Assembly: GCA_951813855.1 (NCBI GenBank)
Contig: OX638380.1
Span: forward strand, 201,060-265,059
DNA length: 64,000 nucleotides
Source of the DNA: an uncultured Verrucomicrobiae bacterium
Lineage (GTDB): Bacteria; Verrucomicrobiota; Verrucomicrobiia; Limisphaerales; AAA164-E04
Direction of reading: 5' to 3'
This document shows, in pieces, positions 39,768 through 59,638 of this stretch. The position numbers were made by a program, and so were the translations under genes. How positions within the stretch are numbered: the first letter of the stretch is position 1; every line of letters starts with the position of its first letter. A model generated the notes under the pieces. The model had not been told where the DNA came from. It did not search any database and saw only the letters and a program-made list of their open reading frames with translations.

Positions 39768-41005
39768 TCACTGGCGATCCGGCTCCGGGTCGGTCTTGTC
39801 GGCGTCGCAAACCCGAGCCAGATCCACGAGGTTCAGATAACTTCGCGCCACGGCCCATTCGTCGTTCTGTTCCATCAACAAGGCCCCGACCAAGCGGAGG
39901 ATGGCGGACTCACAGGGAAAGATTTCGACGGTTCGGGAGCGGCGTTTGATTTCCTTGTTCAAGCGTTCGATCGGATTGGTGCTGCAGATTTTGGGGTGCA
40001 GGCTTTCGGGGTAGGAAAGATAGGCGAGAACTTCCGATTCGGCCTCGTCCATCAGTTGGGCGACCTTGGGAAACCGGCTCCTCAATTCCTCGGCGATCTT
40101 GCCCCATTGTTGTTGAGCCGAAACCTGCTGCCGAAAGGCGAAAACCGTGCGAACCTGGCTGCCGATCGCCGCTCGCTCGCCTTTGCGGACGTGAGCCAGG
40201 AGATTACGCAAGAAGTGCACTTTGCAACGTTGCCACGAAGTGGCCAGCGTGCGCTGAATGGCAGCCTCCAACCCTTGATGGTGATCGGAGATTACCAATT
40301 GCACGCCGCGAAGCCCACGGCGCAGCAGTTTCCGGAGGAAATCGGTCCAGAACGTTTCCGCTTCGCTGCAGCCGAGTTCGAGTCCCAGCACCTCGCGTCG
40401 GCCTTGGTCGTTGACGCCCAGCGGTCCAACCAAAGAAACGGCCACTGGCCTTCGAGCGGTCGATCCAGGAACGATCCCACGCGAGTATCGAGTTCCTGGC
40501 ACTGGCGGGAAACTTCGCTGCGCTTGACACCGCTCAAGCCCATGGCTTGCACCAGGCGATCGACGTTGCGCGTCGAGATCCCTTGCACGTAGGCTTCTTG
40601 AATGACCGAAGTCAACGCGGCTTCCGAGAGCCGGCGCGGGGTCAGAAAGGAGGGAAAGTAACTGCCGTGGCGCAATTTGGGGATCTGCAACTCCACTTCA
40701 CCGGCCCGCGTCTTCCAAGCTCGAGCTCGATAGCCGTTGCGCCACGTGGTGCGTTCGGGATTATTTTCGCCTAACGCCGCCCCGATCAAGGCGGCGACTT
40801 CCTCTTCCATGATCTGTTGCGCCTGTTGGCGGATCATATCCCGGATCAGATTCGGATCGCCATCGAACTCGGGGAGATCTGGTTTCGGTTGGTTCGGATC
40901 GTTCATCTCCAATAGTTCTTCCTTGGTTGGGCGATAATCCCAATCTGCCGAAAGTCCCTGGAGGAGACCGATCACTCGACATCTTTCGATTCCCGGAGGC
41001 CCCAA
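39768..41005 (-). pseudogene. IS256 transposase A, with an internal deletion/frameshift after FLWLD
   Basis: RNGYR, IPKLRHGSYFP and GISTR in one frame; GRREVLG, ISDHHQGL, QRCKVHF and STNPIERLNKEIKRR in another. Confidence 0.88.
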
Positions 41006-41048
41006 ACTACGGTCGCTACGCTCCCTTCGTTGGGGGCCTCCGGGAATC
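40988..41048. repeat. 16-bp perfect inverted repeat (hairpin) inside the IS256 left end
   Basis: GATTCCCGGAGGCCCC … GGGGCCTCCGGGAATC, with GGTCGCTACGCTCCC in the loop. Confidence 0.9.
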
Positions 41049-42585
41049 CACTCCTACACCACTAAATGGGACACAAGCGAAAACCAGGATTGGCGGCAAC
41101 AACTGGAAACGTCAGAGAGAGAAAACCATCGTTCGGCTACCCCTTTTTCCAAGGGCAAACGCAAAGATAACCCCCAAAAGCCCGGTCGCAAACCTGGGCA
41201 AGGAAAGTTTCGCCATAAACCAGCGCCGGAGCCCCAAGAACCGGATGAAATCCAAGAGTTTCAGGCTTCCTTGGATACCGAGGCCTGTCCGAAGTGCGGG
41301 GCGAAACTTGAGCGACAAGCCTCGGAAACTGCGACGACGATTGATCTGCCCCGACTCATTGGCCGAGTAATCAAATACTTTTCGATTGAGGTTGCGGAGT
41401 GCACGGGATGCGGACACAAGGTCTGGGGCACGCATCCTGAATTAGCGAAGGATCAGTTTGGAGCGACGGCTCATCGGATTGGCTCCCGAGTCTATGCTTT
41501 GGCGTTGGCCTTGCATTACGATTTGGGAATGTCATTGCGCCAGACGGAGAAGGTGCTCAACGATTATTTCCAGATCCCCGTGACCCAAAGTGCGATCACC
41601 CAGAAGGCTCTGAAGGCGGCGGAGCAAGGGAAACTTGGCGAACTGGCTCAGGAAATCAAGGCGGAACTGGCTCAAGCGGATATCATTCACACGGACGATA
41701 CCGGTTGGAAAGTCGGGGGAACCCCCCATTTTTTGATGACGTTTTGCAACGAGAAGGCGATTTAAAAAGATGCTGAATAGCTTGTGGCTCCAGAATCAAA
41801 AGGGCCAGTTGCTTCGATTTCTGGACCATCCCAAGCTTGAACCGACCAACAATCGAGCCGAACGGGCTCTGCGACCGGGCGTCAAGGCTCGGAAGGTTTC
41901 CCAGTGCTCGAAAAATCAGAGAGGGGCTCAGAGTCGGGCGGCCATCACTAGCGTCACGGCTACCTCTCGCCTGAAAAAGGAGTCGGTTTTGGAGACGTTG
42001 GCGTCAGCGCTTTAGTTCTCAGTTCGATCACCCTCGGTTGATACCGGCTCGGGTCTTATCGTGCTTTCAGCATTGGTTTTCCGAAATCATGGAGCTTGGG
42101 ATTATTCCCGTAATTTTGCTGAAACGGCAATCGAATGCCACTCGAAAGCCAACGTTGTTGGTCGAGGATATTTGATCTGAAGCCGCAAGACGATCAACCA
42201 AGGACGTCGGATGGAATGAGATCACTCATCTCCTGACAAAAGCGAAATATGAAATCCTTGATCATGGGAATGCATCCTTTTCGTCAGATCATTTAGTTCA
42301 AAATGGCGTTCAAACCCGCTAATCAATTACAATAAATCAAAAATCAAACCGAAATCAAGAGCCGGTCAATTTAGGGAGTGAATCAAAGCAGGTTTTACCC
42401 CCGAGATGTTCGATTGGTATTCGATAAAGTAGCGTTGAAATTTAATAGAGCGGATTTATTATGCCAATCATATGACTAACACGTATTATTGACGGTAACC
42501 GGTAACGGTTATCCCAATCAAACCGACGGTTCTTAATCGTAGAAATTATCGGGTATGTCAAATTAACAAATATTATCAAAACCGC

Positions 42586-44733
42586 TTAATCTAACAGAGA
42601 CCGTAATTGACATAATCGCAGATGGACGAAGTTGTTAGCGAATCGAGAATATGCCGAACGGAAGTAATGCCAAAGCAAAAAGGAGCCGGCTAGGTGAACC
42701 ATCATGTTGTCCATGAAAAAAGAATTATAAAATATAATCAAACACACTTGAATAATTAAAGAAGCCGCAATAAACGTAACAATTGGAAATAAAAAGAATG
42801 CCGAAAATAACTTTACGGAAATAAACCAATGAGAGTGTTTTCCGGTTGCCAGCCAAATACCGTAATATTGCATGGCGGATAATTCGTAATACGATAAATA
42901 GTACGTTCCGATAAAAAAACAAAGGCAAAGCAGAATACTATTCAGGATATAATTGAAGACAGGATCATACATAATCATAAAAAATACCGACAGGAATAAA
43001 AAATAAACGGCCGAAGGAATCAAGAAACGTTTTATTTGCCATTGTTGTAATTCGTATCGAAATCCCCAAAAAAACAATAAAAACGCACCAGTGAAAAAGT
43101 TAAAACAAGAGGTAATTTCGCCAAACTTACCGAAATAAATAATACTTAGCACATTATAACAGATAATTCCGAACACTAATATAAAAATGAATATTAATAA
43201 TAAAAAACGTTTCGTTTGAAATCGTAGATATTCGGTTTTCAGTCCTCGGAAAAAGCATAAAAATGTACACATCAAAAATCCGGAATAAATAAAAAAATGA
43301 AAAGTGTTACGCCCGCCATCTGAATTAGAAAAAATAAAAATAAAATTGATCATAATAAACGATAATGAAACTGGAATTGATAAATATCCAATGAACAGAA
43401 ATGAGTAATGTTTTATTGTCGAACGAACTGGAATAGGAAAGAATTTAATATAAAACACAAAAAAAGTCATTATGGATAAACACAGACAAACGATCAGTTT
43501 ATCGGAATAAATATATCCATCTCTAATGTATAAAGCGAAAAACACCCCTGCCACCCAAACATATCCAATACCCAGTAACACGAAACGATAATGAAGTCGT
43601 AGCTTCAGGAATGAACGGATACCGGCGACTATCGATAAGACAGAGAGAGGCGATATCAGTAACAATTCCATCATTCTCGATTTGCGATCGGAGAGCATTT
43701 GATGGGGAGTTTCTATTGCGACGTTAAAGCGAACGGCTAATTCCATAATAACAAGAAAAAAACAAGCAAAATTTAGATTTGGATGGCGATTTAAATGAGT
43801 ATCAAAAAACAGTGATAAGCAGGAATATAAAATAACCAGGAATAAACCAAAATAAATCAAAGCTTGATTAAAAAAGGGTTTGGGATGAAAAAGACTAATT
43901 AAAATTTGGTGCGGATTTTCATTATCCTTAATGTTGGGTAATCGGCGATAGGATAATCTGATTTCTTCTGTTTTTAAAGTTTTGTTAATTTTGGATTCAA
44001 GTGGTTTGGCAAGCAATCTTTTAATTTGAGATGTCTGAGATAATTCCGATTTAAATTCACGATTCCAAATCGAAAGAAAGCGTTTGTAACTAAATGTAAA
44101 CATGTTAAAGGTAATTGCAAATAAAATAAAAAGAGTTTGTGCATACCCAAAAAGATGAAATTCATTGCCAATCGCGTAGTTACATGGCAGCCAAAGCAGA
44201 AACGTCAAAAATGGAAATATTAAAAAAAACGTATTTTTTTCTTTTGAATTGTTGTGTTTCGGTCGCCCGACTGCCCAATATATCCCGGTTAATAATCCAA
44301 TATAAATAGAAAAACAAATAATTATCAAACATCTCAGCAAATCTGTTAGAGTTACGCCTCCGTTAATCAACGTCAAGGAAAGAATTGGAATAATTGCAAT
44401 AAGACATATGAAACATTGAATGCCTTGGGGTAAGATTTTACCTAATAATATTTCAGAAGAACGTAATCGAGTCAAAAATAATAAGCCGAGAGTGTTGTTG
44501 CGAAGTTCTAAAGCAATAGCATGAGACGAGGATATACCAGCGAAGAGTCCGAAATAAATCGCCGCAATGAAGGTGACTGCTTTTAGGGCTCCTTGTCCGT
44601 CGTTAGGATCATCCGCATGGTTAATATACCAAATAAAAAATACTAACGCGATCGAAGCAGTTCTCAACCAGTATCCCGTGATGTTTCTTGATTGCGAAAA
44701 AAACTCTTTGACTAATACGGCGTTGATTTGCAT
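42586..44733 (-). CDS. ABC-2-type permease-like polytopic membrane protein, paralogue 3 (715 aa, AT-rich)
   Basis: ELRNNTLGLLFLTRL…ILLGKI, NGGVT, and a second half-motif DRKSRMMELLLISPL. Many hydrophobic segments. Confidence 0.78.
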   Translation of the reverse strand: MQINAVLVKEFFSQSRNITGYWLRTASIALVFFIWYINHADDPNDGQGALKAVTFIAAIYFGLFAGISSSHAIALELRNNTLGLLFLTRLRSSEILLGKILPQGIQCFICLIAIIPILSLTLINGGVTLTDLLRCLIIICFSIYIGLLTGIYWAVGRPKHNNSKEKNTFFLIFPFLTFLLWLPCNYAIGNEFHLFGYAQTLFILFAITFNMFTFSYKRFLSIWNREFKSELSQTSQIKRLLAKPLESKINKTLKTEEIRLSYRRLPNIKDNENPHQILISLFHPKPFFNQALIYFGLFLVILYSCLSLFFDTHLNRHPNLNFACFFLVIMELAVRFNVAIETPHQMLSDRKSRMMELLLISPLSVLSIVAGIRSFLKLRLHYRFVLLGIGYVWVAGVFFALYIRDGYIYSDKLIVCLCLSIMTFFVFYIKFFPIPVRSTIKHYSFLFIGYLSIPVSLSFIMINFIFIFSNSDGGRNTFHFFIYSGFLMCTFLCFFRGLKTEYLRFQTKRFLLLIFIFILVFGIICYNVLSIIYFGKFGEITSCFNFFTGAFLLFFWGFRYELQQWQIKRFLIPSAVYFLFLSVFFMIMYDPVFNYILNSILLCLCFFIGTYYLSYYELSAMQYYGIWLATGKHSHWFISVKLFSAFFLFPIVTFIAASLIIQVCLIIFYNSFFMDNMMVHLAGSFLLWHYFRSAYSRFANNFVHLRLCQLRSLLD

Positions 44734-44856
44734 GGAGTTGATTACTGATTCGATTAATTCACACCATCAAGAAAACGGGTTTAAATATTGCGGTAAATTA
44801 ATCATTTTGAATGACTGCATAAAAAAACAGCGGTGAGATTAATTAAAACAACAATG

Positions 44857-47238
44857 TTAAACATTGATCTGTCGAAATTTACGTAATTGATTGGTCGAAA
44901 TTATGTTTAATATCAAAGCTATGGTGATGCGTGCTAAATGCCAGATAATAACTTGTCCCGTCATTACATAAATTTGTTCGATGCGAGATAAACATAAACG
45001 AAGGTGATCTACAATCAAAAAGGCGCTCGTTATTAAAAGAATTAATAAAAATAAAGGGAAAATAAAATTAATGGTAAACAGAATCCATATAATTTTAAAA
45101 TGCGTTAAATTACGTACGGCTAAATACAGACCCAATGATTGAACTAAAGATAATTCATAAAAAGACAAAAATAAACTTCCTCCTAAAAACAATGAAATAG
45201 TTATAAATTCGTACTGTTCAGGGACGAAGCGCCAATCGAATAAAAGCAACAAACAAATGAAATAAATACTCAAACCACCGATTGCAAATAATCTAAATCG
45301 ATTTGTCCGCCAACGTTTTGATCGTGATCTAAATCCCCAAAACAACAATATAATTGTTCCGCATGACAACCAAAAGTAACCCTCGGTTGATTGGCGGTCA
45401 TTAAATAATAACGCAGTAGCCATTAAATAATAAAATCCACCAGCAATGGACAAGTGCGTTATCATCAACAGCACGATTCTATTAGGTTGCAACCGGTTTC
45501 CATTTGATTGCAAAATACAATAAGTTATATAAAGCGATCCGCCAATGAAAGCAAGTAAAATAATAATATTCCCGAACGAATATTTATAATCATCATAAAA
45601 ATAAAAATCAGATGCTAAAATTATAATGAAGAACAGATGACCAATCATTAGAAATAAAAATTTAACTGATCTTAATGGTTTTAGTTCATAACGCAGGCCA
45701 AAAAAGGACAAAAATATAATTCCTGCCAAAAAAAGATAGATAATTGTCCCATGATAAAAATATGTGGAATAAATTGAACTAGATGATAAATTAAAATTAA
45801 CTAAAATTAAGAAATATGCTCCCAATAACGATGTTTGGGCGATTATTATTAGTAAAAAACGTTTAGCGTTCGATCCTATCAACTCTAATCGTAATCCCAA
45901 ATAAATCCAAAAAACTGAGCCGATGAAACAAACGAAGTGTACCATCGGAGTATCCGTTGACCAGGATAGGCTATAATTTTGATTAAGGACAATCGACAAT
46001 ATAAACGCTAAATATCTGATGCTCAACAACAATGAACGGTTAAATTGAAACTGTTTTAAATTTTTAATTAATCCGGAAACAATTGATTTATCGCTCAGTG
46101 GCGAAACCATTAAAAGTTCTATTAATCCTGTTTTACGATCATGCACAATTTGATGGGGCGTTTCCACGGCAACAGTCCAACGAACTACTAATTCCAACAG
46201 CAACAAAAAAAGAATTCCTAACGAAATGAAATCATTAGATTGATCGAAACCATCTAAAATCGAAGATAGAATACATATCATCATAAAGATAAAGATTAGA
46301 TAAATAATGCCTCGAAACCAGAGTTGTTTCGTGTGAAAAACAGCGATTAAATTTTGGTAGGAATTTTCAGCGTCGTTGATACATAATGGTCTGTTTTTAT
46401 TCGATCTGATTTTTGCTGGTTTACCGCCGAGTGTATTTGACTGTGGATTTAAAGCTGCCGACTGAGGGTTTGTTTCCCACCGCCAGTCAAGTCGAAACGA
46501 AAAATAAGCCGCCATGATAAACCCAATTCCGGTTCCGATTAAAACTATGATCGAATTAAAATAACGGGAAGAATCGAATGCGGAACCAATCGTAGTTTCG
46601 ATTAATCCAATTAATGGAAATAAAATAGCACCCAATTCGGAATGAGGGCGCACATAAATTAGGCGTACTTCAAAAACTTCTTTAAAAATAAACGACGTAA
46701 GAAATGGAATCAAATGAATCCCAAAGAGGGTAATAGAAGTAGCAGTCGATGTGTTTTTTAGATCACGAAATACGACTGACCAAAATAGGCCCACCGATAA
46801 TCCTAAAAATGTCATGGCCCATATTGCCAGACAACATCTTAGCACATCCGCCCAAGTTACCCCTCCGCTTAACAACGGAATTGCGAGAAACGGTGTAATG
46901 GCAAGCAGGCATAACAAAAACTGTGTTACTTTTGTAATTAGTTTCCCGAATAAGATTTCGCAGGGTCGTAACGGGGTTAACATTAATAAGCCGAGCGTAT
47001 TGAGTCTTCGCTCGGAACTGATGGTATCGGAAACCGATAAACCGGAACCAAGTCCAAATATTACCATTGAAACGATGGTCACGGTGATGAGAATTTGGTC
47101 CCCATCGTTGGGGATAATAAGAAATGGAATAAACCAAGCTAGAAATATCAACCCTAAGAATACCGCTCGCAACCAGTACCCGGTAACTCTGCGAGATAGC
47201 ATCAGTAGTTCCCTTATCAATATGGTGCCGATTCTCAT
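44857..47238 (-). CDS. ABC-2-type permease-like polytopic membrane protein, paralogue 2 (793 aa, AT-rich)
   Basis: ISSERRLNTLGLLMLTPL…ILFGKL, SGGVT, DRKTGLIELLMVSPL. Confidence 0.8.
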   Translation of the reverse strand: MRIGTILIRELLMLSRRVTGYWLRAVFLGLIFLAWFIPFLIIPNDGDQILITVTIVSMVIFGLGSGLSVSDTISSERRLNTLGLLMLTPLRPCEILFGKLITKVTQFLLCLLAITPFLAIPLLSGGVTWADVLRCCLAIWAMTFLGLSVGLFWSVVFRDLKNTSTATSITLFGIHLIPFLTSFIFKEVFEVRLIYVRPHSELGAILFPLIGLIETTIGSAFDSSRYFNSIIVLIGTGIGFIMAAYFSFRLDWRWETNPQSAALNPQSNTLGGKPAKIRSNKNRPLCINDAENSYQNLIAVFHTKQLWFRGIIYLIFIFMMICILSSILDGFDQSNDFISLGILFLLLLELVVRWTVAVETPHQIVHDRKTGLIELLMVSPLSDKSIVSGLIKNLKQFQFNRSLLLSIRYLAFILSIVLNQNYSLSWSTDTPMVHFVCFIGSVFWIYLGLRLELIGSNAKRFLLIIIAQTSLLGAYFLILVNFNLSSSSIYSTYFYHGTIIYLFLAGIIFLSFFGLRYELKPLRSVKFLFLMIGHLFFIIILASDFYFYDDYKYSFGNIIILLAFIGGSLYITYCILQSNGNRLQPNRIVLLMITHLSIAGGFYYLMATALLFNDRQSTEGYFWLSCGTIILLFWGFRSRSKRWRTNRFRLFAIGGLSIYFICLLLLFDWRFVPEQYEFITISLFLGGSLFLSFYELSLVQSLGLYLAVRNLTHFKIIWILFTINFIFPLFLLILLITSAFLIVDHLRLCLSRIEQIYVMTGQVIIWHLARITIALILNIISTNQLRKFRQINV

Positions 47239-47681
47239 CTCTTCAATTTGGGGTTGAGGTGGATCGGTGCAAAACGGTAAACATTGAGTTTTCGGCAGTC
47301 ATTAATATTTTTATGAACCCGGACTTTTCTAAATGGTCCAAAATTGCTCGATTGGATTCGAGTTGAAATGATCGATAATTTTCTGGATTATCGGCGTATT
47401 TGTTTCGGTTCTTAATGTCGGAGTGTAATCAGCAATGGTGATATTACCGTTGTTCGGCGCTCTATTTGTAGTGTTTATCATAATCTGACACCCTTTAGTC
47501 AAACCGGAATCAATTGCCTGCGAATCGTTGATTGGATTTCCGGTATCTCCGTTTTTACGCGGTAAACTTATTGTCGAATATTTTGACCTGAGTTAGGGCG
47601 GTTTGCCGTACTTGAGTCTTGAATCATTGATGTTTTCGATCGTTTAGTTCGATGCCGAGAAATTCACGTAGGCAATTAGTT

Positions 47682-49343
47682 TTAGCAAATCGTCTTCCGC
47701 ATATCTCTAAATTGCTTGGAGGCGTAATAGCCGAGCGACCAAGCAAGGATAAAACGGATAAGAAACCAAACTAGTAACCATGTGATCAGAGAAAATATTC
47801 CTATTATGCCAGATACATCTATGCCAGGTGCTTCTCCTAAAAAAAAAGTAATATAAACTAAACCATTAATCCAAAAACTTAATGGGAGCAAGAATAGTGG
47901 AATCAAAAAATTAATGGCAAATAATAGCCAAGTAATAGCCAAATGTTTGGATAGCCGCATGGCTAACCAAACCCCATAAGTTTGGGTCGTTTGCAGTTCT
48001 TTAAATGACAATAGAACGTTTCCTATTGAAAAAACCGAAAAAAGTATGATAACCGTGTGATTTGCAACCACTGCAACCGGTACAAAGAGATTCCCGATCA
48101 TGATCCCCGAAAACGGTTCTGTGAGAATCCCGATCGTGATCCCCGAAAGGAAACACGCATATCCGATGGCTAGCAAAAACGACCGTCTAGTTTGGTGCTT
48201 TTTCAATTCTGATAATAAGCCGGAGATTAAGGATTTGTCATTTACAGGTGATACCAATAACAATTCCAACATCCCTGATTTTCGATCATGCACTATTTGC
48301 CGAGGAGCTTCTATGGCAGCTGCCCAACGATTCAACAGTTCCAAAAAACCTAGCCCGAGACAGCACATAGCTATGCCCGTTTTAAACAGTAATAAAATTC
48401 CACTTATTAGTATAATCCAACCCCAAGTTAGTTTCGCGATGCCTTCGATGATCGGTTGTTTTTTAGCGTTAGCCATGACCCAACCCCGATAGGGATTGTC
48501 TTGCCAGCTAAACTGGTACCATCGCAGTTTTCCGGACCGTTTAATTCTTAACCGGTTGAGTTTGTCGCCGGGATTTTTTATGAGTTCGATAGACTGTGGA
48601 TTCGTCTCTTTTTTCCAAACGATTCGGAATGCGATATAAGCTGCCAAAAGCAACGTCGCCCCAGCTCCGAATATGGTTGCGACTGCCTCGAAGTATTTTG
48701 CGGATAGTAAGTCTACGACGGAATAGGTTGCTAACGTAAAAAGCGGCCCGAGGGTAATGATCGTATCGTTGATGCGGACGCCTGGAAATAAATTGGCCAG
48801 CAGGAAAATAAACGGGTAGAAATAAAGCCCCAACATGGTCAGAAAACTGGCGGTTGAAGAGGTTTTTAAGTCCTGGAAGATCGTCGTCCAGAAAAAACCG
48901 ACCGTCAATCCCAGAAAAGTCATGGTCCATATCGCGAGACAGCACTTCATCACGTCGTCCCAGGTAACTCCTCCGCTCAATAGCGGAAGAGCGATAATCG
49001 GAGTGACGGCGAAAAGGCACAGCAAGTATTGCGAAATACCGGTGATCAGTTTTCCCGTCATCACGGCAATCGGTCGTAACGGCGTTAGCATGAGTAGCCC
49101 GAGAGTTTTTTCCCGGCGCTCTGAGCTGATCGAATCAGACGTCGTGACGCTGGCTCCGATTCCGAATATAACCATCGACACGAACGTAACGGTTATCAGG
49201 ATGCCTTCCCCGTCGAGTGCGCTGATAAACGGTAGGAACCAGGTTAAAAATATCAATCCGAGAAACACCATCCGCATCCCATACAGAAGTCTCCGGCGGG
49301 AAAGCATTCGTAACTCTCGGATGACAATTATGCCGATATTCAT
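47682..49343 (-). CDS. ABC-2-type permease-like polytopic membrane protein, paralogue 1 (553 aa)
   Basis: IRELRMLSRR, ISSERREKTLGLLMLTPL…MTGKL, SGGVT, DRKSGMLELLLVSPV. Confidence 0.82.
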   Translation of the reverse strand: MNIGIIVIRELRMLSRRRLLYGMRMVFLGLIFLTWFLPFISALDGEGILITVTFVSMVIFGIGASVTTSDSISSERREKTLGLLMLTPLRPIAVMTGKLITGISQYLLCLFAVTPIIALPLLSGGVTWDDVMKCCLAIWTMTFLGLTVGFFWTTIFQDLKTSSTASFLTMLGLYFYPFIFLLANLFPGVRINDTIITLGPLFTLATYSVVDLLSAKYFEAVATIFGAGATLLLAAYIAFRIVWKKETNPQSIELIKNPGDKLNRLRIKRSGKLRWYQFSWQDNPYRGWVMANAKKQPIIEGIAKLTWGWIILISGILLLFKTGIAMCCLGLGFLELLNRWAAAIEAPRQIVHDRKSGMLELLLVSPVNDKSLISGLLSELKKHQTRRSFLLAIGYACFLSGITIGILTEPFSGIMIGNLFVPVAVVANHTVIILFSVFSIGNVLLSFKELQTTQTYGVWLAMRLSKHLAITWLLFAINFLIPLFLLPLSFWINGLVYITFFLGEAPGIDVSGIIGIFSLITWLLVWFLIRFILAWSLGYYASKQFRDMRKTIC

Positions 49344-49859
49344 CGCTTCGTTCCGGAGTCGAGATCAATCCGTACGGGGCAAGCAAATCTCGTGGCAAGC
49401 CGGATGATCAAGGCCACGGCAGGAATAATCTGAATCGCTCAGTCCCTTGCGGCCGGTCGGCAAAATGATCGACATACGACCGTCGTTAGCCTCGATACGG
49501 ATAGCCATTTCGTTGCGATGATAAGGTTCGGTCAGCGAGAAATCAACTCTTCCCACCGCTCGTTTCGGAAAAAAATCGTTGTTCTGCTCCGCCGTCGCAA
49601 ACGATCATCTCGTTCTCGAGCGGCGACGTTCCCGTTTTCGGGCGCGGTCGGTGTTTTCCCGACGGTTTTCGTTGGACGGTATTGTCGGAATCTCTGCGGA
49701 CGGCAATTTCCCCAGCAGTCGCATCTATCGTTCGGAGGGCATCGGCCTGAGCGGACCTTGGAATCATTGTTCCAGAACCGGCGTTCAAAGCGCCATTGAA
49801 CGCGACGGCTGTGAGCGGCGGGTTCCTTTCGAGCGAGAATCGAATCGAAATTACCCGAT

Positions 49860-50913
49860 TCAAGTCGTGGCGCCTCGGCAATCGGCGATCCAGGACTCGA
49901 CGGTCTCCAGGACGGCTTCCGGTTTCACTTCGCGCAATTCCCCGTCCCGAGGTTTGAATTCTACAATATCCCGCTTCAATGCCCGCGGCCCGACCGCGAT
50001 GCTCAAGGGAAAGCCGACCAATTCCGAATCGTTGAATTTCACGCCGGGACGTTCGTCGCGATCGTCGAGAATCGTTTCGATCTGCCGTTCCGTCAACTGC
50101 CGGTAAAGAGTTTCGGCCAGTTCGAGACTAGGGCATCGAGGCGTAGCGTCCAAGGCGGTGATGCAGACGGTACCCGGCGCGACCGATACCGGCCACCGGA
50201 CTCCCTGATCGTCATGGTATTGTTCGATGATCGCCTGGAGGGTTTCGAGTGACGCCGATTCCGTAACAGCCCATGATGGCGGGTTGTTGTTGTCCCTGAC
50301 CGTTTAGGATGAACGCGTTGAGGCTTTCGCTGTATTTGGTTCCCAGTTTGAAAATATGGCCGACCTCGATGACCGGCCGCATTTCGAGAGGAGCACCGGT
50401 AACGGGGCAGGGTTCGCCGGCCCCGACGGTACGCAAATCCTCCCAGCGAGTCACTTTGATATCGCGTTCGATGCAGACGTTTTGGACATGCCAGTCGTTT
50501 TCGTTGGCTCCCGTAGTCAGTCCCTGACCGTTCTTGAGCAAGTGGTCTGCGATAATCTCTAGCTGATCGACTCCGACGCCCCCCAGACTGCACGGATCGG
50601 CTCCGAGCGTTTCCCGGATTTCTTTCGCTTCGGCGGGGCGGTATTCGGCAGTGCCGAGCACTCCGGCCAACTTGGCCTCGTTGAGCCGGTCGGCACCGGT
50701 CAACAGCAACAGCACCAAGCGGGAGGTTACCCGATAGAACAACAATTTGATTTGTCGCTGGGCAGGGACGTTCCATAGGGGTTTCGTCAACTCCTCGATG
50801 GTCCTGACGCCCGGAGTCGGAAATCGTTCGATGGCCGGTAACGTGGCGGCGTCGACGGGGCAGTGCGGCGGTTTCAGGGCGCTGACGGCTTTGTCCACGT
50901 TGGCGGCGTAACT
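49860..50913 (-). pseudogene. proS: C-terminal part of prolyl-tRNA synthetase, 5'-truncated and frameshifted
   Basis: YAANVDKA, TPGVRTI, TGANE, IEVGHIFKLGTKYS and MGCYGIGVTR, then a shift near 50245, then LDDRDERPGVKFNDSELVG. Confidence 0.9.
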
Positions 50914-51360
50914 CTTGTCCGGCGTGCTTCTATCTCTATTGCCAGATTATGGGCGCTCACGAGCAGATTGGGCTGGTCGCCCTGTCGAGTTGCCGGGAAT
51001 ACGAAAGCGGGGCTATTCGAAAGCATGAATTCACGCGGCCTGATAAAGAGGACGACTGGGTGAGTCACATGGAGTCCTTGGAGGCTCAAACCGGTGCGGT
51101 GTTTTTGACCTATCCGGCCGATCCCGAACTGGATCGGAAATTCTCGGCGGTCGTTTCCCGAACGGTGCAGGTCGATTTCTCGTCGGAAGACGGCGTGAGG
51201 CATAGCGCCTGGGTGATCGCCGAAGAAGAGGAGTTGCGGTTCATCGAGGAACGGTTCGCCGAAATCCCTCGGCTCTATATCGCCGACAGTCATCAACGTA
51301 GCGCCGCGGCTTCTCGGGTGGCGAAAGATCGGGCGGAAAAAAACGGGAGCGGCGGCTTTT
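50914..51360 (+). pseudogene. Internal fragment of a DUF1015 family gene
   Basis: FYLYCQIMG…QIGLVA…IRKHEFTRPDKEDD…QTGAVFLTY…LYIADSHQRSAAA. Cut by IS21 at the 3' side. Confidence 0.8.
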
Positions 51361-51767
51361 TGTATAGCGCGACAATTACAATGCGACACTTGGGGCGTGA
51401 GACGCAAGTGTCATTGCATCGGTCGCGGGGGGCATTCTGCCTGACGGGGTTGGGACGGTCAAGCGGAAAGAGAGAGTCGATCTGCTGGAGGTCAAGGGTA
51501 GCGACGAGCATCCTGCGAAGGGATGCGACGGTTCAAGAAGGGACCGACGCCGTGACGTTGCGAGCGAACTACCCGGACACGGGAGGTAACAATGGTTCCG
51601 ATAAAAACTGCTTGGAAAAGAAAAATCGACTAGTCAGCTTGGAATAGGGTGTCAATCCAGTGCTGGAGCTTCTGTCTTCTGAGGCGGTCGTTCCAGTCTT
51701 TAGCTTCTTGAGGTCTCAGGCGAAATAATGTGGTGAATAACAACTGCTTGGGGAAAAGGAAGGGGGG

Positions 51768-52875
51768 TTATTTCTCGGGATCAACCTCGCGTCTGGAATG
51801 GCTCACCGCCGTCATTAGCGCCCTGTGACCAAAGTGCGCCGGAATGGGGGAGGATGACCGGGCGAGCGGCCTTCGAGGTCGGGCGTCAACCGTCGAACCT
51901 TGCTCCGCTGGTTCGGCAACTTCGGCGGCAGGCATCCGGATTCTCTTTCTCGTGGGCTGATGGTTCACTGAGCGGTGGCGACTGGAACGAGACCGCGGTC
52001 GAGTCGAGGATCGGGATTCCCGAGCCGTGAGAGTGGCTGGTGAAGAGTCGGTTGTGGCGGGAAGGTTGGCGCTGTGAGACGGCTCGGCAGCGCCGTCGGC
52101 CCGGTGGTGTTCCCAAGCGGTGCGGCACCGGTAGCTTTGGGTGTTGATCTCGAAGATGGTGGCGTGATGGACGATTTGATCGAACGCGGCGGCGGCGGTG
52201 GCCTGGTCGGGAAAGATTCGATCCCATTGGGCGAAGGGCAGATTGGCGGTGAGGAGGATGGAGCGTTGTTCGTAGCGATCGGAGATCAGTTCGAAGAGGA
52301 CGGCGCTTTCTTCCCGGTCACGGTTGACGTAGGCGAAATCGTCAAGGATGAGGAGGTGGAATTTATGGAGACGCGCGAGCAGTCCATCGAGATCGAGATG
52401 GCGTTGGGCGACCTGCAGTTTCTGGACGAGGCTGGAGGTTCCGGTGAAGAGCACCTTGAGGCCCTGGCGCCCGAGGGAGAGGCCGATGGCGGAGGCGAGG
52501 TGGCTCTTGCCGACGCCGGGGGGGCCGAAGATGAGGAGGTTGGCTCCCTTGCGGATTCAGCTGTCTTCGGAGGCGAAGGCCTGAACGCGTGCTTGGGGCG
52601 GGGATGGGATGAGGCTGAAATCGAAGCCTTCGAGGTTCTTGCCGGGGAGGAGTTTGGCCTGCCGGGTATGTCGGTCGATGCGGCGGTTGTCCCTTTCGGT
52701 CAATTCGAGTTCGGCGAGGGAGAAGAGAAATTTTGACGCCCGACCAACCCTCCTGGTCGGCGCGTTGAGCCAGGATCCGCCACTCGGCCTCGATGGAGGG
52801 CAATCGCAGCTCGGAGAGCATGAGAGAAAGTCGGTCGGGATCGAAGGCTTGTGGCGGAGTGGAGCGGATGGTCAT
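51768..52875 (-). pseudogene. istB: IS21 helper ATPase IstB, with frameshift and internal stop
   Basis: ELRLPSI, then a shift near 52733, a TGA near 52560, then GPPGVGKSH, LLILDD, LFELISDRYE and TANLPFAQW. Confidence 0.88.
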
Positions 52876-57473: not shown

Positions 57474-59638
57474 CAGGACTTTTTCATGCTAATAATTTTT
57501 GATCGACGATCGTTTTTTTTAAGTGTCGAGCGGAGTATTTCGATTCGTCGGAAAAACTGTTTTTCCGAATTATGCTTCGAGTTAGGCGGCGATTGCCGAT
57601 TGAGACGAGTTTCAGCCGGACAGGAGACTGAACCGGTGCGAGTATCGGTCGAACGATCAATTCGCCGACCGAATCAGCAGGGAGGAAGCGTCGGTAATCA
57701 GGAAGGTCGGGTCAGTTTTTTTTCGGACGTTTAAACGGGGTGGTTTTCGTGACGGCTCGCAACCCTTGGTTCCGATTCGTCTGAAAATCGTCGGTAGCTT
57801 CGGCCATATTAGAGTATCCCGACTGGAGAATGATCGCCAAGGCCAGGTTGTTGAAGAGGGCATTGTTCGTCGGCCCATGGCGAGTTCGCATAAGACAATC
57901 ATCTTCGCCGAAAATCCCGTCGCGACGGCGGTGATTGCCGTTTTCTACCGTCCAATGTCCCCGATTGAGTGACAACAATCGTTGAGCGTCGGCAGCTTCC
58001 GGAGGCAACGAAGTGACGCCGTAAGCATATTCCACGGTCTCGGGCCCACCGTTTAAATGATGGCGGTGTCGAAGGATCCGAAAGACTTGGAGGACATGCG
58101 GTAATTTGACGGCTCCGGGAAGGGGTTCATAGGTTTGAATGCTCCGTTGATCGATGCGGCCATGTCCTTTCTCCGGGTTTTCGGTGAACCGGTCCTGGGC
58201 CACTCGATCCCAATCCAGGCTGGTCAAAAATTGAGAGAGTTCGGGGTTGTTCTCTTTGACCGTGAAGAGAAAATGGGCTCCGTTAACCAACACGATGGCA
58301 TCGGCCATGACTCGGTTAGTATGGAGCGCATCGATCGTAATGATGGCTCCCCGGATATCGACATCCTCCAAGAGAGCCGCCATCGCCGCCTGTTCGCCGC
58401 CTTGGTCTCGGCAAATGCGAACGGCGAGGGGCACCGCATCTTGATGGCGCACGAGGATGACGGTCTCGAAATGGTCTTTGCTGTTGCGATTAGCTCCGTT
58501 GATCCGCTTCCCGTCAGCAGCCAAGGCTTCCAAGGGTTGTCGAGTCAATTGGGCCGTTACCCAGCGGTGAGTTACCGTTTGCAACGCTTCCGGATCCGTC
58601 TCGGTCATGACCCGGTGAATCGTCGCGAGAGACGGGGCCACGCAACGGCCCTTGGCGTTGCGCCACGCCCCGAGAGTCTGCAATTGATTTGGCGTCATTT
58701 TTTGGGCGTAACGCGAAGTCGCCAAGGGGCCGACCTTGCCGGCCAATCGAGCTAAGATGCAGATAGCGAGGACCATTTCCAGCCGATGTTTGCGTCCTTG
58801 TGCCCGGCGAAAATCAGCCATTTCCGCGAGCAGTTGCACCAATGATTTCAACTGTTTCGGGGATGTTTCTACCCGCTGCACCTGGGGGCCCCAAGACGGA
58901 TCGTCCTGACGCTTCCTTAATCGGGAACAGGCTTGGGGCCGCAAGGGATAAACGTACATTTCCTTCTTGATATTGTGCCGGGCGGTATAGCGTCCGTTGC
59001 TGCGAGCGTAGCCTTGCGATTGCCCTACCGCCCGCCAATTCCCCGCGCGATAGATCGTGCCCGCGAAGTGTCGGGGATCGACGAAAGTTTCGGCCAATTC
59101 CAGCGGATGACCCCAGGTCCGTTGCCAATCGGCACTCAGACGGCGCAGCATTTTGGCCATGACGCAGCTCCCCAGATTGCGCACTTCGCCCCGCTCGGTA
59201 AGCAGGAGGAATCGGGTATTGTTGGCAATCAAATGAAGCCGACGAAACTGCTCTCGTTTTTTCCATCCGAGCCACTTGTCTCGCGGGCGACACTTGAACA
59301 CTCCGCTTTGCCAGCCGGCTAACGCCAACCACCGGCCTCGGTACTCGGCAACATAACGCAGCCCGCGTCCGGCAAAGCCTTTGAAACCCAAGCGATGGTT
59401 CTGATCCATCAGCGAATCCCAGCGTCTTCGCTCACTGCTCTTCACTAATCGAACAGTCACCAGCTTGAGGTTGATTTTGGCGTCCATGAGGAACCAATAA
59501 CGACCGGAGAATGAAAAAGCCAGCTTTATTTTCCCATTTCGAAGGCGCTAAAGTTTCGGCTCTCTGGTGAAGGGAAAAAGCGAATATGTCCCGAAATCGG
59601 TGACACGGGCCTCTAGCGATTAGCGTGAAAAAACCCTG
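57474..59638 (-). mobile_element. ISAs1-family insertion sequence, copy 2, intact
   Basis: Same IRs as copy 1. A 10-bp target duplication CAAGCTAATC lies at 57464-57473 and 59639-59648. Confidence 0.95.
57712..59487 (-). CDS. ISAs1 transposase with N-terminal DUF4338 domain (591 aa)
   Basis: N-terminal [14 protein letters not shown]…RDKWLGW…ANNTRFLLL…ETFVDP…GTIYRAGNW. The C-terminal ISAs1 DDE core includes GHWTVEN. Confidence 0.92.
   Translation of the reverse strand: MDAKINLKLVTVRLVKSSERRRWDSLMDQNHRLGFKGFAGRGLRYVAEYRGRWLALAGWQSGVFKCRPRDKWLGWKKREQFRRLHLIANNTRFLLLTERGEVRNLGSCVMAKMLRRLSADWQRTWGHPLELAETFVDPRHFAGTIYRAGNWRAVGQSQGYARSNGRYTARHNIKKEMYVYPLRPQACSRLRKRQDDPSWGPQVQRVETSPKQLKSLVQLLAEMADFRRAQGRKHRLEMVLAICILARLAGKVGPLATSRYAQKMTPNQLQTLGAWRNAKGRCVAPSLATIHRVMTETDPEALQTVTHRWVTAQLTRQPLEALAADGKRINGANRNSKDHFETVILVRHQDAVPLAVRICRDQGGEQAAMAALLEDVDIRGAIITIDALHTNRVMADAIVLVNGAHFLFTVKENNPELSQFLTSLDWDRVAQDRFTENPEKGHGRIDQRSIQTYEPLPGAVKLPHVLQVFRILRHRHHLNGGPETVEYAYGVTSLPPEAADAQRLLSLNRGHWTVENGNHRRRDGIFGEDDCLMRTRHGPTNNALFNNLALAIILQSGYSNMAEATDDFQTNRNQGLRAVTKTTPFKRPKKN

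Follow-up and report, generated by a model that had tools for sequence, protein, structure and literature searches.

A transmembrane hairpin repeated four and five times in fused type V exporter permeases of a Limisphaerales bacterium

Our analysis concerns three neighbouring genes in a 64,000-nucleotide stretch of contig OX638380.1, from an uncultured verrucomicrobial bacterium of the order Limisphaerales; we call this whole stretch the window, and the genome to which it belongs G000. The products of the three genes, P0001, P0002 and P0003, are each two fused NosY-like type V membrane domains of ATP-binding cassette (ABC) exporters, with an architecture like that of Rv1217c. In two of them a pair of transmembrane (TM) helices in the second domain is present several times in tandem, as four units in P0001 and five in P0002, against a single one in P0003, and this arrangement is conserved in orthologues from separate assemblies and restricted to one small clade. 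We propose, with a probability of about 0.6, that all three remain exporter membrane domains with an enlarged domain 2, powered by an ATPase encoded elsewhere in the genome. An earlier note, made from the letters of the window, had described three ABC-2-like paralogues with 1, 5 and 4 hairpin units, and this description is borne out by the reading frames, the alignment, profile comparisons and the helix counts of AlphaFold2 models.

Results

Three genes with a common build

Positions 42586-49343 of the window hold three intact open reading frames (ORFs) in tandem on the minus strand. They are mutually paralogous, P0002 being 46% and P0001 28% identical to P0003. The features on which the argument turns are the following.

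47682..49343, minus strand: gene of P0003, 553 amino acids (aa), from the ORF and its translation; ordinary architecture with one hairpin
44857..47238, minus strand: gene of P0002, 793 aa, from the ORF; same core with five hairpin units, giving a putative 20 helices
42586..44733, minus strand: gene of P0001, 715 aa, from the ORF; same core with four hairpin units, giving a putative 18 helices
48246..48302, minus strand: putative second coupling-helix motif of P0003 (residues 348-366, R-Q-I-V-H-D-R-K-S-G-M-L-E-L-L-L-V-S-P), placed by alignment, hhalign and position; also in P0002 and P0001
48003..48224, minus strand: single native hairpin of P0003 (residues 374-447), counterpart of P0002 unit 1 (Smith-Waterman z 9.7 against that unit; model helices 369-408 and 429-463)
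45160..46077, minus strand: five tandem hairpin units of P0002 (residues 388-693; 59, 66, 61, 60 and 60 aa), by unit hidden Markov model (HMM) and profile-profile comparison
42889..43626, minus strand: four hairpin units of P0001 (residues 370-615; 58, 68, 60 and 60 aa), by the same two methods

Common to the three proteins are an N-terminal domain of about 250 aa with the motif ERRxxTLGLLxLTP near residue 75, the motif DRKxxxxELLxxSP near residue 355 and a tail of the form YEL...Q..G.WLA; the N-terminal amphipathic helix and both coupling-helix motifs are conserved in all of them. Eight positions of the second motif (D353, R354, K355, E360, L361, L362, S365 and P366 in P0003 numbering) are invariant in the three-protein alignment. 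The N-terminal and C-terminal halves are themselves homologous (hhalign 84.9%, E 6.4e-6, on an alignment of 138 family members), and the second motif aligns on the N-terminal ERREKTLGLLMLTP motif. A scan of the three proteins against NCBIfam returned only noise.

A comparison by AlphaFold and Foldseek shows P0003 to consist of two fused type V domains. In its AlphaFold2 model (predicted local distance difference test, pLDDT, 86.2; predicted template modelling score, pTM, 0.87) there are 6+6 long helices. Helices 3-16 and 284-292 precede the first helix of the respective domains, and short helices at 71-85 and 348-364, which come after each domain's second helix, bear the two motifs. The best Foldseek match is NosY (E 3e-5; target-normalised TM-scores of 0.70-0.79 in the top ten), ABCG25, ABCG2, ABCA4 and PmtCD are also matched, and the match over the full length of P0003 is Rv1217c (8k1n_C, 535 columns). 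A search of the protein sequences in the PDB with the family profile (E<=1) matched NosY only, with E 1.6e-4 over residues 1-112, and did not match Rv1217c. The structural report on Rv1217c (PMC11406275) describes two TM domains of the type V fold in one chain, a connecting helix (CnH) before TM1 and TM7, a coupling helix (CpH) that lies between TM2 and TM3 and again between TM8 and TM9, and inter-domain contacts formed by TMs 1/2/5 and 7/8/11.

By position, the motif DRKxxxxELLxxSP would be the coupling helix of a second, divergent ABC-2 domain, because its place after that domain's second helix matches CpH2 between TM8 and TM9 in Rv1217c; contact with an ATPase would be expected of it. By the same positional argument the repeated unit would be the TM9-TM10 hairpin, the counterpart of TM3-TM4 in the first domain, and the published Rv1217c contacts suggest that this hairpin is lipid-facing.

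Evidence for the repeat

We name the units of P0002 B1-B5, or u1-u5 as profiles, and those of P0001 C1-C4, or c1-c4, cut at the boundaries of the earlier note, which translate to 45160-46077 and 42889-43626 and could be kept as they were. In Smith-Waterman comparisons against 200 shuffles the pairs B2-B3, B2-B4, B2-B5, B3-B5, B4-B5, C3-C4 and C1-C4 reach z 3.9-7.4, and many pairs that include B1, C1 or C2 do no better than the shuffles. Profile-profile comparison, with P0002-unit profiles built from seven P0002 orthologues, gives P values of 4.6e-7 for u2-u3, 6.8e-7 for u2-u5, 4.7e-6 for u2-u4, 7.9e-6 for u3-u5 and 4e-4 for u4-u5, with all matches among u2-u5 in register, against a best control of P 0.0038 when units are compared with another TM hairpin of the same proteins (n=25 comparisons). 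For the P0001 clade (4 sequences) the matches c3-c4 (P 5.8e-7) and c1-c4 (1e-5) compare with 16 controls that include one 11-column match at P 2.8e-4. The best matches between the clades are c4-u5 (P 5.7e-9) and c3-u4 (1.8e-6); no fewer than two of the extra units are therefore older than the divergence of the 5-unit and 4-unit types. The internal repeat that the earlier note wanted checked by profile self-alignment is thus significant and in register.

Similarity does not extend to every unit listed in that note: it holds by profile for P0002 units 2-5 and for P0001 units 1, 3 and 4. P0002 unit 1 resembles the other units weakly (P 0.004) and is the clear counterpart of the P0003 unit, and for P0001 unit 2 no comparison with another unit is significant (best P 0.017). 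These two are units by position and topology only, and P0001 unit 2 also by length.

The helix content and charge pattern agree with the repeat. Between the second motif and the tail, AlphaFold2 predicts 10 helices in P0002 versus 2 in P0003; the ten lie in residues 383-708, with a pLDDT of about 45 over 422-671. In each unit the turn on the cytoplasmic side is basic and the outer loop is short and acidic or aromatic; the positive-inside alternation is seen in every unit, and lysine plus arginine number 12 in the four loops taken as cytoplasmic versus 2 in the five taken as outer. Sequence varies among the outer loops, in which Tyr, Asp, Ser and Asn are abundant.

At the DNA level the repeat consists of a 58-nt stretch at the unit junctions alone (66-72% identical, with 180-nt spacing in the P0001 gene), and Tandem Repeats Finder reports no array; because the DNA similarity is so confined and no array is found, we take the amplification to be old. 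A search of the ESM Atlas with the repeat zone gave scores of at most 0.84, below the trusted level. A separate observation in the same region concerns P0183, a metagenomic P0001 orthologue, in which about 10 residues of the basic loop before unit 2 are duplicated in tandem as two consecutive similar L-P-M-x-x-R-S-T stretches, a small-scale in-frame gain of repeat.

Distribution of the family and of the amplification

The family is large. An exhaustive search with P0003 returned 3928 representatives at E<=1e-3, mostly of 520-580 aa (typically about 540 aa), and 565 of 596 pattern matches in genome contigs encode relatives. The 80 loci that were kept are labelled Limisphaerales, Pedosphaera, Akkermansia or similar, with a few bins carrying other labels, and 37 of the 41 genomes of the window's order have a family match. 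Among cluster names the only informative one, that of a distant member, is 'ABC-type transport system involved in cytochrome c biogenesis permease component'. Keyword searches of the literature found no description of this family or of such hairpin amplification, which is weak evidence of absence. We regard it as a large Verrucomicrobial family of fused type V permeases, hitherto undescribed as far as those searches go; the fold class is known, and what is new is the conserved hairpin amplification.

This amplification is found only in a small clade of P0002- and P0001-type proteins. The unit HMM derives from the ten units of the three window proteins, and its matches on those units are circular; beyond them it detects 5 units in each of P0004-P0008 and also in the second copy that the window's genome contains, 4 in P0040 and a fragment, 2 in P0009 and 1 in P0003-like proteins. 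It has no match in 159 of 197 family sequences, its multi-unit matches are confined to the P0002/P0001 clade, and five distant paralogues give nothing better than an independent E-value (iE) of 0.25. Among named Verrucomicrobial genomes we collected 149 family ORFs in 78 loci, 22 of them of at least 610 aa, and all 22 are explained by over-called N-terminal starts or by C-terminal additions to a core of about 510-570 residues; the same is true of a further 28 family ORFs from relatives. Searches of the genome contigs with the three-protein alignment, and of metagenome contigs with a 5-unit alignment and with P0005, yielded no relative, and the best counterpart of the cassette proteins in genomes of the same genus is 37% identical, with no close one. 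The possibility raised in the earlier note, that ordinary homologues commonly have the same extra helices, is thus answered in favour of the repeat.

Within the clade the number of units is largely stable. P0002-type orthologues (785-796 aa, 66-73% identity) have 5 units and P0001-type orthologues (702-734 aa, 69-74% identity) have 4; the count is 4 in all seven full-length sequences of the 4-unit type and 5 in seven of the eight of the 5-unit group. When the units are placed in a tree, those at one position group together across orthologues as a supported clade, with the deeper forks and the order of duplication not resolved. The single departure is P0009 (597 aa), a 5-to-2 variant. Its identity to P0008 (796 aa) is about 90% on either side of a gap of some 200 aa, and 89% as measured over the C-terminal 176 columns; through this gap units 2-4 are lost in register, and a hybrid hairpin stays behind. 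Unit gain or loss thus happens, rarely, and of the claim that the family is expandable the in-register change stands while the stable counts restrict it.

Other members are enlarged by other routes. An 871-aa family member in a seven-gene tandem array of the same genus (locus L024 12032-14647, genome G006) carries the whole of domain 2 twice, in the order N-C-C. Family members of about 1000 aa (P0089 and P0161, and others such as L031 4348-7326, L096 and L097) have a C-terminal extension, which is an RCC1-like beta-propeller in two of the five scanned; the other three have no Pfam match on the extension.

Selection

Ratios of nonsynonymous to synonymous substitution rates (dN/dS) were obtained by the Nei-Gojobori method between paralogues within the window's genome, at dS 0.15-0.43. 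They are 0.44-0.58 overall and 0.26-0.37 for domain 1, 0.61 over the five P0002 units and 0.31-0.47 over the P0001 units; the single P0003 unit gives 1.06-1.67 against three paralogues, over 59 codons only. In that unit constraint is relaxed, and diversifying selection is not demonstrated. The proposal of a diversifying family accordingly finds no support in these ratios.

A sign of selection comes from the second 5-unit copy in the same genome, which differs from P0002 at 28% of residues. Since 5.6% of single-base changes create a stop codon, about 44 stop-creating changes would be expected between the two copies at dS 0.33, and none is seen; truncation has therefore been selected against. 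The natural logarithm of the probability of such open frames by chance is -44 to -52. The earlier note had read selection from intact ORFs amid broken surroundings, and the missing stops uphold this; as to the surroundings, they consist of insertion sequence (IS) elements and a duplicated proS fragment, and the 4-unit paralogues elsewhere in the genome are IS-disrupted.

The ATPase

As had been noted, the window encodes no ATPase. In other genomes the picture is different: among 61 loci with enough upstream sequence to judge, 17 have an ABC ATPase of about 320 aa directly upstream of the first family gene on the same strand. This linked ATPase often heads arrays of 2-4 family paralogues, and in 9 loci it is preceded by a gene of 717-879 aa; in G000 a gene of 948 aa precedes the unlinked ATPase described below. 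Of four such large upstream genes scanned against Pfam, two have a sub-threshold DUF4350 match (20.2 and 22.5 versus 30.4) and two have nothing; upstream gene, ATPase and permease together might be compared with three-part ABC-2 systems of the GldAFG-like or NosDFY-like kind, whose large accessory protein is of the GldG/ABC_transp_aux or NosD family.

The search for a cognate ATPase elsewhere in the genome, suggested in the earlier note, led to a single gene. An HMM built from the permease-linked ATPases scores one gene of G000, at 2445284-2446288, with 513 bits versus 196 for the next, and its product is 63-67% identical to those ATPases. This candidate is single-copy in 20 of the 21 genomes searched, G000 included, and three genomes, G011, G012 and G023, have it adjoining a family gene. 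For G000 and nine of the ten other genomes of the genus, no family match (P0002 as query, E<=1e-10) lies within 20 kb of it; in the tenth, G008, it sits at a contig end. Unlinked permeases are the rule in this genus, also among ordinary members of 540 aa, and one ATPase serving many dispersed permease paralogues would be the simplest reading. About 30 family ORFs and fragments lie in seven or more clusters of the window's genome, further fragments carrying stops. At the ATPase locus itself (G000:C1:2445284-2449142, locus L114 7285-11143) we see the 948-aa gene, which has a weak DUF4350 match, and the 334-aa ABC ATPase, orthologous to the one at the head of permease arrays in other Verrucomicrobia, with no permease gene beside them. 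An ATPase that adjoins a family gene in G001 (L030/L034) was considered as a cognate and rejected, as it is not an orthologue of the cognate-type ATPase of G000.

Complex prediction of P0001 with residues 20-300 of one copy of the ATPase gave a score of 0.41 versus 0.00 for the best control, a weak result that is possibly memorised from similar solved complexes. Of 80 solved complexes 58 attain the mark that it passes, as do 2 of the 110 mismatched pairs, and scores of 0.60 or lower that still pass occur in only 7 of those 80 and in both passing mismatches. Between prediction runs the agreement in contacts is 82% or more, and the pLDDT of the partner is 75 or more.

The cassette

The three genes lie in a segment of low GC content that occurs several times in the genome. 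Its parts are as follows.

42331..50921, no strand: low-GC cassette with the three genes, from blastn against the genome (segmental copies of 82-94% identity; GC 0.33-0.39 versus about 0.57 around it)
41079..42330, no strand: part of an IS66-family element bounding the cassette on the left (more than 20 genome copies, 91-99% identity; DDE_Tnp_IS66)
50212..50898, minus strand: fragment of proS (prolyl-tRNA synthetase) carried with the cassette (tRNA_edit and tRNA-synt_2b; four genome copies)

Segmental duplicates are found at G000 942926-953646, 955651-963748, 4719818-4723801 and 4728220-4729515. The copy at 943-953 kb has intact genes for 538 and 785 aa, and transposase genes split its 4-unit gene; the one at 955-963 kb lacks the 5-unit gene, and here too the 4-unit gene is split. 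The interrupting genes in these two other copies of the 4-unit gene are transposases of ISAZ013 type and DDE_Tnp_1, leaving P0001 as the sole uninterrupted copy. Further proS segments occur at G000 937354-938010, 955674-956357 and 4722543-4723199, and the only proS frame with core, editing and anticodon domains is at G000 936103-938391, upstream of the 943-kb cassette copy; the proS fragments have moved along with the permease cassette in segmental duplication.

The GC content at third codon positions (GC3) is 0.33-0.34 in the long genes of P0001 and P0002 and 0.50 in that of P0003, compared with 0.64 +/- 0.10 over 1621 long ORFs, of which 31 fall below 0.35. The two long genes with their spacers (window 42331-47681) have a GC content of 0.31-0.40 in a genome of GC 0.555. 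Composition thus changes along a single cassette, GC3 being 0.50 in its first gene, with foreign origin or AT drift as options. Rfam has no match within window 41000-52000, and a scan of the sequence for promoters and terminators gave fewer sites than in shuffles.

Discussion

How might hairpins be added to such a protein without destroying it? In the mechanism that we favour, the two conserved motifs would be the two coupling helices, docking onto an ATPase dimer, and in P0002 and P0001 the hairpin right after the second of them has been copied in tandem. Each extra unit would bring two helices, so that topology is kept with 20 and 18 helices instead of 12. The extra hairpins would sit at the lipid-facing edge of domain 2, giving the protein a bigger membrane footprint and leaving the inter-domain interface untouched. 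The ATPase at G000 2445284-2446288, beside a large putative accessory gene, would serve the dispersed permease paralogues.

Several results weigh against this. No PF00005 match adjoins any family cluster in G000, the nearest being 4.4 kb away on the opposite strand, and we infer the pairing of P0001, P0002 and P0003 with an unlinked ATPase with the help of a complex score that is weak and possibly memorised. Pfam's ABC2_membrane matches the three proteins below threshold only, and on the N-terminal domain (score/gathering score 26.1/27.2 for P0003, 22.6/27.2 for P0001 and 18.7/31.6 for P0002); among family relatives, P0076 (32.7/27.2) and P0122 (52.2/31.6) exceed the gathering score, and P0100 has a second, sub-threshold match on domain 2. 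The low pLDDT of the P0002 repeat zone means that the model does not establish how the additional helices pack, and their place at the periphery is suggested by the description of Rv1217c. Moreover, dN/dS values of 0.5-0.6, rising to 1-1.7 in the P0003 unit, show weak constraint; the 4-unit type is at least redundant, both its other copies being disrupted by IS elements; and a GC3 of 0.33-0.34 sets the two long genes apart as either foreign in composition or drifting.

It is these last features that would be expected if the units were tolerated ballast, that is, neutral hairpin expansions, with no functional gain, in redundant, weakly constrained and AT-drifting copies that are being lost to IS insertion. 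The substitution ratios (0.44-0.58 overall, 0.61 in the P0002 units, about 1 or more in the P0003 unit), the GC3 of the long genes, the transposase interruption of two of the three copies of the 4-unit type together with further fragments that have stops, the position of the cassette among IS copies in an IS-rich genome, and the loss of three units from one close relative all fit such a view. Yet neutral drift would have left some of the roughly 44 expected stop codons between the 5-unit copies, and there are none; the 5- and 4-unit builds persist in orthologues that are 66-74% identical and come from separate assemblies, every unit position groups as a clade by itself, the deletion from 5 to 2 units keeps the register and retains a hairpin, and every unit has the positive-inside pattern. 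We therefore think it unlikely that the hairpins are ballast. That the whole pattern is an artefact of assembly or a chance likeness of hydrophobic segments is very improbable: TM segments do share composition, several pairs with B1, C1 or C2 are not above shuffles and c2 is not significant, but the in-register profile matches reach P 5.7e-9 versus 2.8e-4 (11 columns) for the best of 41 controls, the unit HMM gives at best iE 0.25 on five distant paralogues, orthologues with the region come from other assemblies, and a second 5-unit copy with a 28% residue difference exists in the same genome.

The earlier note had raised as a possibility a third view, in which the proteins have been neofunctionalised as ATPase-independent membrane proteins, their helical array acting as a scaffold (for secretion, for example), a host-interaction surface or a phage-receptor decoy. 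No linked ATPase is found in the window or at any family cluster of G000, the outer loops vary in sequence and abound in Tyr, Asp, Ser and Asn, and a cassette of atypical composition has been copied to several sites, all of which could be accommodated by such a role. Nevertheless all three proteins conserve the N-terminal amphipathic helix as well as the two coupling-helix motifs, and the conservation of the second motif in particular argues for continued work with an ATPase; a conserved single-copy ATPase of the cognate type exists; and unlinked permeases are normal in the genus, ordinary 540-aa members included. For a host-facing, secretion-scaffold or decoy function we find no support: the window proteins match no PADLOC family and are predicted to lie in the inner membrane, so that their loops would be away from the cell surface in this bacterium, which is taken to have two membranes. 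We accordingly regard neofunctionalisation as a distinctly doubtful account and return to exporter membrane domains with an enlarged domain 2 as the preferred reading.

Comparison with known systems

The closest architectural parallel is Rv1217c-Rv1218c of Mycobacterium tuberculosis (PDB 8K1M/8K1N/8K1O). As described (PMC11406275), Rv1217c is a chain of about 550 aa with both type V domains and 12 helices, a connecting helix before each domain's first helix and a coupling helix after its second, and its partner is a separate ATPase that acts as a homodimer. The likeness is architectural and does not amount to close kinship, with Foldseek TM-scores of 0.41-0.49 and identities of 11-13%, that to 8k1n_C being 11%. 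Unlike the proteins studied here, Rv1217c lacks a repeated hairpin and has, going by the name, an adjacent ATPase gene; we make no claim of drug efflux for the window proteins.

NosY of NosDFY(L) (PDB 7O0Y, 7O12, 7QBA and 7ZNQ) is the best fold match and the only sequence-profile match, and its partners are an ATPase and a periplasmic accessory protein. An ABC-2 motif of the E-R-E-x-G-T-L-E type is common to NosY and the family. NosY differs in that it is one dimerising domain with 6 helices and about 270 aa, whereas here two divergent domains are fused and the second has 1, 4 or 5 hairpins; moreover, the upstream accessory-like gene is not NosD and has a sub-threshold DUF4350 match only.

Ordinary 540-aa members of the family (for example in Pedosphaera parvula and Akkermansia muciniphila bins, L098 and L051) share the two-domain build and both motifs and occur in tandem arrays of 1-4 paralogues, behind an ATPase and a large upstream gene in the 17 of 61 loci described above. 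They differ from P0001 and P0002 in having one hairpin after the second coupling helix and a genome-typical GC content (0.51-0.66 in the relatives read). Some carry the other additions mentioned, an RCC1-like C-terminal domain (about 1000 aa) or a second domain 2 (871 aa).

For the sharing of an ATPase there are precedents among importers. MsiK of Streptomyces and the ATPase of group II ECF transporters are each shared by many unlinked membrane components. The resemblance lies in a single ATPase gene and many dispersed membrane-component genes per genome; the difference is that those importers belong to other fold classes and that sharing in the present case would follow from gene counts and positions.

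Implications

ABC-exporter membrane domains are regarded as fixed in helix count per fold class, and here 18 or 20 helices are predicted. If the enlarged proteins are functional, they reveal where the type V fold tolerates insertion, and the natural series of 1, 2, 4 and 5 units offers a probe for the role of helices outside the inter-domain contacts. More speculatively, the hairpin after the second coupling helix could be an evolvable 'accordion' module, whose copy number changes by in-register gain and loss (1, 2, 4 or 5 units) and alters the lipid-facing surface or lateral gate of domain 2, and hence what is exported by a shared ATPase engine. We consider this improbable on present evidence. 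Were it true, interchangeable membrane modules would be diversifying by the number of helix pairs, a mode for which our keyword literature searches found no description in ABC transporters. More generally, one conserved ATPase, its accessory gene and up to about 20 dispersed permease paralogues in a Limisphaerales genome raise the question of shared ATPases for exporters. We see no sign of pathogenicity or of a new kind of system.

Mobile elements around the cassette

The genome is very rich in IS elements, and transposase genes of IS4-like, IS66, IS256-like (frameshifted, 39768-41005) and Mu-like types are present in the window. Two ORFs of about 600 aa, at window 57712-59487 (minus strand) and at G000 938664-940547 (plus strand), combine an N-terminal DruA-like PF14236 domain with DDE_Tnp_1_assoc and DDE_Tnp_1, so that such DruA-like/DDE_Tnp_1 ORFs are present at no fewer than two sites of the genome.

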